A DNA stretch of 64,000 nt from Eledone cirrhosa (lineage: Eukaryota). The notes below the pieces were generated by a model. That model was given only the letters and a program-made list of their open reading frames with translations. It searched no databases and was not told where the DNA came from. The position numbers were made by a program, and so were the translations under genes. Numbering within the stretch: position 1 is the first letter of the stretch; every line of letters begins with the position of its first letter. The stretch covers positions 108,314,001 through 108,378,000 of the forward strand of contig OZ024745.1 in assembly GCA_964016885.1 (NCBI GenBank), read 5' to 3'. Below are positions 7,720-11,752 of the stretch, in pieces.

Positions 7720-7917
7720 AACGGAGGAAATGTGGTAAGGAACCAGGTGGACCATAACGCACCAAAGTACTCAATACTTAGGGTAGTAGAGTGGGTAATA
7801 GGAACGAGTAGGACCCCGACGGCTGAGCTCAAGCCGTCTCGACGACTAATTCTTCTAGTCCAGAATTAGCCGTCGAAACGGCTTGAGCTCAGCCGTCGGG
7901 GTCCTACTCGTTCCTAT
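7720..7917 (-). mobile_element. palindromic hammerhead-derived mini-element with tail, in (TA)n (family X)
   Basis: 56-bp arms (7798-7853 / 7862-7917). Arm reads GAAA-CGGCT-TGAGCTC-AGCCG-TC-GGGG (hammerhead stem III plus GUC site). Tail 7720-7797 nearly matches 10860-10945. Confidence 0.75.
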
Positions 7918-8005
7918 ATATATATATATATATATAAGTTGTCCCCAAAATATGTATACACACATAAACAGAATGCTGTTGAAATGTGTATACATGATGA
8001 TGAGA

Positions 8006-8082
8006 CAGGGTGTCCCCCAAAAATGTATACACATTTCAACAGCATTCTGTTTATGTGTATATACATTTTTTGGGGACAACTT
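8006..8082. mobile_element. Tc1/mariner-type MITE (related copies at 8904-8980 and, partial, 7937-7995)
   Basis: TIR CAGGGTGTCCCCCAAAAATGTATAC; same family as 13533-13610. Confidence 0.7.
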
Positions 8083-9325
8083 ATATATATATATATATAT
8101 ATATATATATATATATATATATAGAGAGAGAGAGAGAGAGAGAGAGAGAGAGAGAGAGAGATTTAGTTCCATATCAAATTAGCAAACCATACTTAAGGAC
8201 GCGTGTTTCAACCAACGAATTTTCAACCCCTGTATATATATATATATATATATATATATATATATATATATATATATATCATCATCATCATCATCATCAT
8301 CGTTTAACGTCCATGTTCCACGCTTGCATGGGTTATATATATATACAAGGGTTGAAAATTCTGATTATATATATATATATATATATAAAAAACATGAGAA
8401 GAATGAATACTGCGTGGTTGCACATGGGTTACATATGATAAAAATAGTCCTTCATCAGTGATTTTCCAACCTTCATTGGTATTTCATCGCTTTAAAAATC
8501 AGATACCTCCAGTTGGTGCGAGCAACAGCTAAATAAAGCTATTGGGACAAGTAAATCGCGTAAAGCGAGCGAGACAGGTAAACAAACATAGAAGGATAGC
8601 AACGCAAAGATAGGAAAAAACAAGCACATGGGAGTCCGATCAGCTTTAGCTGTGTGGATTTCATGGGCGAGAGACAACAGACCGTCCGACGCGAGTGAGG
8701 TGTGAGCAAGAAAGGACCCCACTTCTGGCCAAACGGGAGGAAGTGAGAAGGGAAGAAGCAGAGAGTGAGTGAGTGGAAGTGCGAATATATATATACAAGG
8801 GTTGAAAATTCGTTGGTTGAAACACGCGTCCTTAAGTATGGTTTGCTAATTTGATGTGGAACTAAATCTCTCTCTCTCTCTCTATATATATATATATATT
8901 TATAAGTCGTCCCCCAAAAATGTATACACACATAAACAAAATGCTGTTGAAATGTGTATACATTTTTGGGGGACACCCTGTGTCATCATCATCGTTTAAC
9001 GTCTATCTTCCATGATACATATATATGTTTGTGTGTGTGTGCGTGTTTGTGTGTGTGTATTCTATGGTTCCTAGTGCAATCCTATTGTACAGTAAGTCTC
9101 TTCTGATGTTGTCTTGTGTTGAACACTGTCTAATGAGTGGGATTTGCTACACAAAAACCACACACAAGCATGTGCAAAATTTGCTGAAAATGAGTTGGAA
9201 AGATCTCCAAACTGTGTACCTGCTGTAAGCTATGAGTGTACAAAAAAGTGTTGTAGGATCACATCACAGGCAGGCTAACACAGAAAACAGATTTTGGGTG
9301 TATCATATGTCTAAGGGTATGGCAT

Positions 9326-9617
9326 GGTATGGTCCCGTAACTCCTAATAGAGTTGTAAGGGCACCGTATTGACATACAGCATTTCTTGGTCATTTTAAGC
9401 CAGGCGGCGTCCATCCCCCTCCAGGCCTGAGGACAGCAGATTTCTTCCAGAAAAGGAAGAATCGACCCCAGTACTAGACTGATACTTTGTTTATTGACTT
9501 CGAAAGGATGAAAGGCTAAGTTGACCGTGGCAGGATTTGAACTCAGAGAGCAGAGAACTGGAACGAATACCATAAAGAATCTATCCAATGTTTTAACGAC
9601 TCTGTCAATTCGCTGCC
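9326..9617 (-). mobile_element. SINE family A variant with a distinct long 3' tail (second copy 15625-15947)
   Basis: SINE-A head and core joined to GCCTGGCTTAAAATG..GGAGTTACGGGACCATAC; the two dispersed copies share this junction. Confidence 0.7.
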
Positions 9618-9789
9618 TATATGTGTAAGGGGAGTTGTAGAAACATCAGTGAAATAACCACAGAAGTAGTTGATAGCTTGTCACCAACTATGACCTAATT
9701 AATGGAAGAAGGAGCTCTTAAAACATAGTAGTCAGCAGAATAAGAACAAGGTGGAAAAAGTTCAGGGAACTACTAACTCTGCAAACATT

Positions 9790-10586
9790 TGAGCAAAGGG
9801 TAGATTGTATGATATCTGTGTATGAAGTGCAATGCTGTGTGGCAATGAGGCATGGGCACTAAATGCAGAGGATGCGGAAAATCTATAAAGAAATTCATGT
9901 GGCAGATGGAAAGTAAATGTTAGTAGTAAGAACACCAGCGAAATAATTTTTTTACAAGCTCTGTAAGGTACCAAAGAAGTAATCAATAGCTTCTGTTACC
10001 TAGGTGACCTAATTAGCAGTGGAGAGGGTTGCTTTGAAGGTTAGTAACTAAAATAAGGGTAAGATGGAAAAGGTTCAGAGCTATTACCTTTGTTGACGAC
10101 AAAAGGTTTCTCTCCCTGAACAAAGGGCTAGCTGTGTGATGCCTTCATAGGAAGTGCAATGTTACATGGAAGTGAAACATGGGCAGGAAATTCAAAGGAT
10201 ATGTGAAGGCTGGGTAGAAATAAAGTGAGCATGCTTTGATGGATGTGTAATGTTAATATGCATGAATGACAGGGTGTGAATGTACTGAGAGAAAAACTGA
10301 GAATAAAACAAAGATATAGTGTGTATGAAAGAAAGCTGCATTCGTGTGGACAAGTGATGTGTATGGATGATGACTGCCAAGCGATCCCAGTGAATGAAAT
10401 TAGAGTACAGGAAAACTGAGGAAGACTTAGACAGAAGCGTTGGAACCTGGTTTCAAAACACTGAACCTCACAGAGGAGATGATAAAGGAATGAAATAGGC
10501 AAAGTGAAGCTGCATAGGAAAAGATTCACTCAACCAATTATAAGGATGGAAATACAGATATGAAATGCTGATGTTGATGATGATGA
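9790..10586 (+). mobile_element. degenerate 3' fragment of an RTE LINE
   Basis: Similar to 46330-46950 (..KGRLYD.CV..AML.GSETWA..), many stops, (GAT)n tail. Confidence 0.75.
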
Positions 10587-10746
10587 TTTATATATATATT
10601 GATAGTCTGCTGTATAAGGACAAGGGAGATTACAAATCAGAGTAGTACACAATACATGGTAAGATGTAGAGTGGGTATATTAGTGAAGTAGAGCATCTTC
10701 TTGGAGACAAATAGCCGAATCCACCTGAGCTCATGGTCAATCCTCT

Positions 10747-10945
10747 ATATTTGACCCCGACGGCAGAGCTCAAGCCGTTTTGACAGATATTTCTGGGCCA
10801 TTTCTGGGACAGAAATAGCCGTTGAAACGGCTTGAGCTCTGCCGTCGGGGTCAAACATTTTCCTATTACCCACTCTACTACCCTAAGTATTGAGTACTCT
10901 GGTGCATTATGGTCCATCTGGTTCCTTACCACACCGCCTTCGTTA
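10747..10945 (+). mobile_element. palindromic hammerhead-derived mini-element with tail (family X)
   Basis: Arms about 10747-10795 / 10810-10858, GAAACGGCTTGAGCTCTGCCGTC-GGGG, tail motif ACTCTA..TTGAGTACT, ends in (TA)n. Confidence 0.75.
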
Positions 10946-11082
10946 TATATATATGTATATGTAAATGTATATATATATATATATATATATATATATATAT
11001 ATATATATATATATATATATATATATATATATATATATATATATATATATATATATATATATATGAAGGATGACAACTGCAT

Positions 11083-11516
11083 AAAAAGGTGCAGAGCACT
11101 AGAAGTCGATGGAAACCGCGGAGTGGGGAGACCCAAGATGACCTGGGATGAGGTGATAAAAGCCGACCTTACCCAATTACACCTCTCAAAGGCGATGACA
11201 CACGACCGTGACCTCTGGCGTCACGCAGTAATACAGAGTACCCGACCTCCCATGGGTACCAGCTGAAGCATATAGACAATATGCCCCCACACCCTCCCAC
11301 TGCAAGGTGGTCATGGAGGTGCCACGGCAAAAAAGCACCCAGCCCACACTGTAAAGTGGACGTGTAGGCGCCACGAAAAAGCACCCAGCACTCACTGTAA
11401 ATGAGGTTGGTGTTAGGAAGGGCATCCAGCTGTAGAAATCAAGCTAGAATCAGTTCCCATCCCACCCTTGCAAGCAGGGAAAAAGCAGACGTAAAATGAA
11501 ATGATGATGATGATGA
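11083..11516 (+). mobile_element. 5'-truncated RTE LINE end with repeat-containing 3' region
   Basis: [36 protein letters not shown].. followed by internal repeats, GGTGTTAGGAAGGGCATCC and a (GAT)n tail. A longer copy is at 36870-37453. Confidence 0.8.
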
Positions 11517-11532
11517 TATATATATATATATA

Positions 11533-11752
11533 TATATTATAAAGAATCAGGACCTGACTGACGGCTGAACTCTTGCCATTTCAACAGCTAGTTCCAGAGC
11601 CTAGAACTAGCTGTTGAAATGGCAAGAGCTCAGCCGTCAGGTCCTGATTCTTTATAATATAACCATACTCTACTACATTGAGTAGTGAGTACTCTGCTGA
11701 GTAATGGTCTAACTAGTTTTAAACTGGTTCTATCCTCCTGAAGTTTGAGGGT
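11533..11752 (+). mobile_element. palindromic hammerhead-derived mini-element with tail (family X, diverged)
   Basis: Arms 11533-11594 / 11604-11661, GAAATGGCAAGAGCTCAGCCGTC-AGG, tail ACTCTACTACATTGAGTAGTGAGTACT, (TA)n on both sides. Confidence 0.75.

Follow-up and report, generated by a model that had tools for sequence, protein, structure and literature searches.

The window analysed here, 64,000 nucleotides (nt) of Eledone cirrhosa DNA (assembly GCA_964016885.1, contig OZ024745.1, positions 108,314,001 to 108,378,000 of the forward strand; coordinates below are those of the window), contains three palindromes, at 7798-7917, 10747-10858 and 11533-11661, whose arms carry the downstream half of the predicted hammerhead ribozyme of a Penelope-like element (PLE). 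Each of them folds as a single hairpin, with fold z values of -19.2 for the first (plus strand; -21.2 on the minus strand), -15.3 for the second and -19.9 for the third, and none of the shuffled sequences folds as well (0/200). They can be aligned to one another and thus form one family, referred to here as family X; folding and mutual alignment together confirm the three diverged palindromic copies reported in a preliminary description of this DNA. The arms follow the pattern (T)AGC[C/T]GT[C/T]-GAAA-[C/T]GGC..GCCGTC-GGGG/AGG, and in each palindrome one arm runs into a tail of about 80 nt and the other stops at or near TTCCTAT. Their outer ends adjoin (TA)n, with the exception of the inverted arm of copy 2.

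Positions within the element are numbered from the predicted ribozyme cut, +1 being the first G after GTC and negative numbers lying upstream; site A denotes TCCGTT followed by ATAT (around +100, at the end of the tail) and site B denotes TTCCTAT followed by ATAT (around +20). In copy 1, the long arm lies on the minus strand (7720..7853), covers the element from -36 to about +100 and ends in the tail at A, a putative start site of reverse transcription (RT). Two bases outside both arms (TC, 7854..7855) separate it from the short plus-strand arm (7856..7917), which begins with TAGTCC, spans -42 to about +20 and ends at site B; the A at 7857 corresponds to -41, the putative capped start discussed below. 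The downstream hammerhead half of this arm (7875..7901, plus strand) comprises GAAA, stem III, GTC, the predicted cut at 7897/7898 and GGGG, the 3' strand of stem I. The succession GAAA-stem III-GTC, previously described for the three copies, is found in general, the exception being the tail-bearing minus-strand arm of copy 1, in which GAAA is mutated to GAGA. Copy 2 has an inverted arm on the minus strand (10747..10796), ending at -38 and with an outer end that falls short of site B, a junction (10797..10809) containing a re-copied ATTTCTGG fragment, and a long plus-strand arm (10810..10945) that runs from -37 through GAAA (10824), GTC (10844-10846), site B (10866) and the tail to site A (10945), where (TA)n follows. 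An older, degenerate relative of family X, with a stem III-like motif and a tail, lies directly beside the inverted arm (10630-10745, minus strand). Copy 3 belongs to an older, diverged subfamily; its inverted arm (11533..11594, minus strand) abuts (TA)n, and its long arm (11603..11752, plus strand) shows GAAA (11616), GTC (11636-11638) and a diverged tail, again followed by (TA)n.

A motif check found neither the hammerhead core strand nor CTGANGA in any of the three window copies, as had already been observed for CTGATGA, so that none of them holds a complete core in cis, and an Rfam scan of the window returned no hammerhead family among the 150 of 170 matches listed, which were mostly microsatellite noise. 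Fold prediction places the half-ribozyme of the palindromes in a locked hairpin of about 55 bp; the role as a trans substrate proposed earlier is plausible only for a natural capped transcript, which would lack the core.

Across the 3.0-Gb genome, the 23-nt stem III motif has 48,134 exact matches (control, 0), a 39-mer of the tail 18,298, and short palindromes (counted by their centres) occur in (TA)n at least 12,980 times. Upstream of the non-inverted copies lie a 3' untranslated region (3'UTR) and an open reading frame (ORF) with reverse transcriptase motifs and C-terminal GIY-YIG motifs, and the hammerhead-plus-tail block also precedes the start of the ORF in tandem copies. The 3'UTR-hammerhead-tail order precedes most of 30 ORF-start loci, which is the partial tandem of pseudo-long terminal repeats (pLTRs) that characterizes endonuclease-bearing (EN+) PLEs, and all of the kilobase-scale long pairs (8/8) are inverted, with one tailed end. 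One locus (L191) preserves a single open frame of 710 amino acids which, judged by motifs, contains YRDD, VIY..YIG and CNLCSEE; Pfam and PDB searches of the parent ORF gave no match. Hydra-clade PLEs are distinguished by RWK, DKT in place of DKG, a CxCx5C linker in place of CX2-5CxxC, CxxC before the E and CxH after the N of the endonuclease, and insertion into (TA)n (PMC8557442; the papers cited here by PMC number are drawn on in part, and what is said of them applies to those parts). The L191 frame has RWR at 27 (RWK-like), DKT at 109, CNCPDRSIC at 564 in the linker (CxCx5C, with no CX2-5CxxC match), CNLCSEE at 662 (CxxC before E) and CKH at 690 (CxH after N), and (TA)n follows the tail in nearly all of the tail-anchored loci listed. 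These protein motifs place the parent as an EN+ PLE of the Hydra clade. The copies are core-less inverted stubs of a coding element, and not tandem non-coding units that each contain a complete hammerhead, as non-LTR retrozymes would be. The earlier view that half of a PLE hammerhead and a PLE 5' inversion are present in the window is correct. In another locus (L217, pLTR to ORF start), the leader from -41 to the ORF ATG measures 231 nt and has one upstream ATG, inside the tail.

Seventy-six distinct parents, a set biased by the queries that fetched it, share the order ACCCC, a 7-nt core, G(C/T)TCGGCTA, a loop of about 36-39 nt, TAGCCGTC, GAAA, stem III, GTC and GGGGT. This is the architecture of a type I hammerhead (three stems around the core, a G10.1-C11.1 pair, GAAA and a NUH triplet), and the parents are predicted to cleave themselves at GUC, which the excess of copies starting at +1 suggests indirectly. 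In 12 hand-picked parents, 88% of cells are paired, against 27-50% in slid controls, and double-sided changes affect three stem II pairs and none in stems I and III. Parents had been expected to show CTGANGA upstream of the stem II strand, and the lack of any such parent had been named as refuting the earlier interpretation. Parents do exist (4,088 matches to a 22-nt upstream core pattern); 41 of the 76 carry a known variant core, TTGANAA (U3-A8), 28 carry CTGAGAA (C3/A8 mismatch), 2 TTGAAGA, 5 other cores and none CTGANGA. The U3-A8 core is a described variant of PLE hammerheads (PMC4209133). The central hairpin of the palindromes, formerly taken for stem II, is a product of the inversion: GACGGCTAATTCT is the inverted copy, and the 5' strand of the parental stem II, G(C/T)TCGGCTA, lies some 36-39 nt upstream.

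The ends of the arms were mapped in the first 100 listed tail matches of contig C1 (first 35 Mb), selected by the tail only. Among the forward arms, 34 have their 5' end at +13..-33, 51 at -34..-47, 6 at -48..-74 (some of these being A/T-run artefacts) and none at -75..-199, and 9 run through; 51 of the 66 arms that reach -34 therefore end at -34 to -47, with an end hazard of 5.5% per nt in this peak against 0.7% per nt downstream. Single ends may be shifted slightly, by a few bases, at self-complementary centres and at A/T runs. The peak lies inside loop II at TTAGTC, and its sharp upstream edge coincides with two motifs that resemble the initiator (Inr) of transcription, TCATTT with its A at -45 and T(T/C)AGTC with its A at -41. 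Breakpoints mapped across copies are thus strongly non-random, as the preliminary description had anticipated, and the axis of symmetry does lie in the parental loop II, at the 3' edge of the loop (-34 to -47) and not at its apex. A script recovered 61 inverted arms, most with their inner end in the same zone as the forward arms; since it looks only for site-B-like starts, these cannot prove that all inverted arms start at B, several arms visible by eye were missed, and one locus (L098) has two tailed arms. Arms begin at two fixed outer sites, about +20 and +100 from the predicted cut, and in all of the kilobase-scale inverted pairs (8/8) one arm ends at B and the other at A. Four unlabelled contig runs of one study show a summed depth about tenfold lower past -45 and loose ends at A, B and -45, and were not counted, as they possibly come from the assembly's own sample. 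A third, rarer 3' end on the same 5' start appears in L167 and L168, where tandem units begin with TTTAGTCC, include the tail and end about 20 nt inside the ORF.

We consider it probable that each palindrome is one short insertion of a Hydra-clade PLE in (TA)n, made by two target-primed complementary DNAs (cDNAs) that run off the 5' end of the sense RNA and are joined head to head. Both ends of the cut target would prime RT on the sense RNA at its two fixed sites (about +20 and +100), as the anole PLE studied in vitro suggests by analogy; both cDNAs would run off an RNA 5' end, likely capped, inside loop II at -41 to -45, transcription presumably starting at the Inr-like motifs TCATTT and T(T/C)AGTC; and the cDNAs would then be joined at their ends, presumably by microhomology or end-joining. 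The absence of CTGA from the palindromes would follow, as transcription from a start in loop II would leave the core out of the RNA. Long copies in which the core is retained are likely to derive from read-through RNA, from circular RNA or from a cDNA transferred to the 3' repeat.

The proposed cap is suggested by the bases added at the junctions. Among 604 copies starting at -41 and joined directly to (TA)n, 157 have an untemplated G before the start, the position in question being a G in 1 of 60 parents, and the same context (T followed by AG) at -30 shows an extra G in 1 of 147 copies (p 7e-16 against -41). In palindrome centres with both arms at -41, an untemplated C after GGACT was counted by eye 15 times against 2 for T in 90 ends (first 50 of 3,831 loci, five single-base inserts left out), and A and T runs at some palindrome centres fit slippage at the end of a template. 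Untemplated G has been interpreted as a copy of the cap in LINE-1 and SVA (PMC4859970), and the position-specific extra G at -41 corresponds to the footprint expected of a cap, which makes a capped start inside loop II likely. TTAGT/TCAGT is kept in a second, diverged family with an otherwise different loop II, and the palindromes of that family centre there too. A search for the downstream promoter element and the motif ten element gave no convincing match. The possibility that TTTAG/TTCAG is a 3' splice site was rejected, because the copies retain the AG and have no upstream exon in common. A short tandem array (G000:C3:187250085-187250331) has units starting at G-AGTCC with a 74-nt spacing, which looks like repeated copying of one short template by the enzyme.

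A second class of copies starts at the predicted cut itself. It is a minority, a few percent of the 100 sampled copies. Of the copies joined to (TA)n, 27 have their first base at +1 and 2 at +2, and one more begins at +1 behind an extra G. In a count by eye of the 44 non-inverted starts in the range +5 to -8, 24 fall at +1 (57 loci from the first 100 of 223 rows, with 12 loci carrying tiny inverted arms and 1 ambiguous locus left out). Most of the twelve +1 copies inspected are complete insertions with distinct flanks, one pair resembles a local duplicate and two are tandems. Forward starts in copies whose inverted arm reaches loop II (first 100 of 651 rows, by eye) are broadly spread, with about 15 near +1, and were not used, being confounded by microhomology. 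This class likely represents run-off from a ribozyme-cut, uncapped RNA end, RNA already cut by the hammerhead serving as the template and acquiring almost no extra G, and it would then record cutting in living cells. Alternatively, the enzyme might pause at the foot of stem III instead of running off a cut end, a serious but unlikely alternative to which the position of stem III, beginning 2-3 nt upstream of +1, lends weight, as does the anole element PAc, which inserts mainly uncut RNA and for which no reads began at the cut (PMC11167929). A structural stop should, however, copy the last unpaired base and so favour -1, seen only 3 times against 24 at +1 by eye, and +1 offers no TA microhomology to favour it; on these grounds the class is read as run-off. 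Starts at +1 are not enriched in the U3-A8 subfamily, with 15 such starts against 9 for C3/A8 (by eye), compared with 9:6 for other starts. Two loci (L263, L269) are short tandem arrays with units starting at +1, again as if the same short template had been re-copied.

Several observations weigh against the explanation proposed here. Many inner ends fall 1-7 nt inside or outside -41/-45. The first control position, -36, also shows an extra G, in 30 of 148 copies (p 0.17 against -41); it may be a minor start, as 29 of the 30 belong to one subfamily, a reading made after the fact. In a pooled control scored by eye (-27 to -39), an adjacent G occurs at 5 of about 58 loci. None of the 18 ORF-start copies reaching loop II stops at AGTCC, so that full-length copies give no sign of this start and have to be ascribed to another kind of template or to strand transfer. 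As to the ribozyme, the minimum-energy fold of one parent (L045) has -23.3 kcal/mol against -15.3 for the hammerhead fold as drawn, a difference of 8 kcal/mol that is consistent with the weak or protein-assisted cleavage reported for such motifs. Lastly, the commonest young subfamily has the C3/A8 mismatch core (28 of the 76 parents) and yet yields +1 starts; this subfamily, TCCTACTCG (L078, L081, L193, L195 and others), has the mismatch in 23 of its 33 parents obtained and is still spreading, ORF-bearing copies included, despite a mostly mismatched core.

Two of these observations would also suit a roadblock, in which both target ends prime but a protein or RNA structure in loop II stops the cDNAs at -41 to -45 on a longer RNA, the extra G reflecting a terminal-transferase habit of the stalled enzyme. 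The extra G at -36 would be expected of such a habit, and ORF-start copies pass loop II without stopping, as if only the initiation-proximal copy were blocked. We nevertheless regard a roadblock as improbable, since the extra G is almost absent at -30 and at +1 (1/28), the sharp upstream edge coincides with an Inr-like motif that two families have retained, and loop II is rich in A and T and has no pairs in the hammerhead fold as drawn.

Fold-back or template switching at the stem II hairpin, by which a single cDNA would copy itself, was the origin first suggested for the inversion and is akin to the self-priming proposed in PMC3846280; it is contradicted by the tests below and very improbable. 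Self-copying would account for the axis in loop II and for the sharing of the same subfamily segment by both arms at 36 of 39 scorable loci (0.30 by chance). However, the product it predicts, an inverted arm together with the whole of loop II, has 0 matches, against the 12,980 short palindromes, and the inverted arm, which should be nested in the first, is the longer one at 23 of the 61 loci with inverted arms (forward longer at 23, equal within 1 nt at 15) and in 3 of the 8 kilobase-scale pairs (L193, L195, L196), where either arm can be the longer. Non-inverted copies, moreover, stop at the same base, AGTCC (seven of the 100 sampled; 447 exact matches joined straight to (TA)n), and the inverted arm has its outer end at a fixed site where ordinary copies end too. 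Least credible of all is amplification of the whole palindrome from a few master copies, in the manner of a miniature inverted-repeat transposable element, for while the copy number is very high, the outer ends are uniform and some centres recur, the centres are highly varied among 50 loci in each of two listings, the recurring ones fit microhomology, and the same outer ends bound kilobase-scale, ORF-bearing pairs.

The capped start and the two-primer insertion may further be united with the formation of the pLTRs, in a scheme that we put forward tentatively and hold to be possible rather than probable. The element would start its capped transcript inside its own hammerhead, so that the 5' copy would be a core-less half-ribozyme that only the core strand of the 3' pLTR could cut; RT primed from both target strands near the RNA 5' end would give strong-stop-like cDNAs; cDNAs extended beyond the 5' end, whether they jump to the 3' repeat or follow a circle made by the ribozyme, would build pLTRs and tandems, and those that fail to extend would leave palindromes. 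If this were true, the genome would hold a base-resolution record of the template strand, the start site and ribozyme cutting in vivo. How pLTR inversions and tandems are built, which RNA strand is copied and whether the hammerheads cut in vivo are questions stated to be open in PMC2377424, PMC3846280, PMC4209133, PMC8557442 and PMC11167929, and the junction statistics make them testable, since thousands of stubs yield predictions at the level of single bases: the sense RNA used as template should be capped and begin at -41/-45, the two primers should act at about +20 and +100, and a minor share of the templates should have been cut at GUC.

Among described elements, Hydra-1_Obim and the Hydra clade (Craig et al. 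2021, PMC8557442) share with family X an RWK-like motif (RWR here), DKT, CxCx5C, CxxC before E, CxH after N and (TA)n targeting; in both, a hammerhead lies within the pLTR and a tail accompanies an inverted copy that is truncated at its 5' end. The hammerhead listed for Hydra-1_Obim (there Hydra-1_oBim) rules out identity with that element, as it has a ctgaagag core and an 8-nt loop 2, whereas loop II has about 36-39 nt here and the core is U3-A8 or C3/A8; the present element is thus another family of that kind. Its tail is also longer (about 80 nt against 30-40 in the Hydra clade, PMC8557442), and tiny palindromic stubs dominate. The feature is real, and the element adds a new family to a clade already described; its architecture (inverted pLTR, tail and U3-A8 core) was known before.

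PAc (Poseidon, Anolis carolinensis; Frangieh et al. 2024, PMC11167929) resembles family X in that both strands of an AT-rich target are cleaved and extended and that two internal RT start sites, downstream of the hammerhead, bound the tail. The parts of that paper drawn on leave the inverted arm and its inner end unexplained and report no RNA reads starting or ending at the hammerhead cut; unlike in PAc, the genomic copies here pile up at the putative capped start and at the cut. The PLE hammerheads of Cervera and de la Pena (2014, PMC4209133) have the same U3-A8 core, long helix II, short helix I and palindromic loop III, and motif pairs on opposite strands, and circular RNA was proposed for PLEs in the same paper, which states that in vivo evidence of cleavage was absent; the parts of it drawn on contain neither a subfamily with the C3/A8 mismatch, as found here, nor a start site within loop II, as proposed here. 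Arkhipova et al. (2013, PMC3846280) describe head-to-head inverted pLTRs with a junction palindrome and an optional tail, explained there by self-priming on an antisense template, whereas a capped sense template with two primers and without self-priming is favoured here. Inverted pLTRs, tails, junction palindromes and pLTR promoters were thus already known (PMC8557442, PMC3846280, PMC2377424); palindromes are not mentioned in the parts of PMC13282606 drawn on. No report of run-off at a cap or at a cut site in PLE insertions was found in the literature searched, although subscription papers or supplements may hold one. The second start of family X is fixed and both of its arms cover the same stretch of about 60 nt, unlike twin priming of LINE-1. 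In that process (Ostertag and Kazazian 2001), the second target end reportedly serves as primer for another cDNA, and the resulting 5' inversion has its parts joined by microhomology; the arms are said to cover adjacent, variable parts of the RNA.

The surroundings of the palindromes contain further (TA)n-associated repeats. The minus strand at 7407-7536 holds another (TA)n-inserted family, whose type I hammerhead (motif at 7492-7534) is compact and canonical, with CTGATGA, a short stem II, GAAA, a 3-bp stem III and GTA; this family is also found beside family X in L041. A pattern scan located more CTGATGA hammerhead-like motifs at 25216-25293, 32007-32043, 56581-56635 and 57295-57351 on the minus strand and at 55270-55322 and 55450-55502 on the plus strand, and in most cases a short tail and (TA)n come after the motif. 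Inverted and direct pairs are also formed by two other families of short repeats flanked by (TA)n (7934-8081 and 8897-8975; 7545-7643, 8145-8243 and 8785-8883), one of them being centred on a TGTATACA palindrome, and the nesting of such repeats beside copy 1 suggests repeated insertion into the same TA tract. Finally, broken frames at 9600-10560 and 11060-11270 (plus strand) resemble the C-terminal part of the reverse transcriptase of an RTE-type long interspersed nuclear element.

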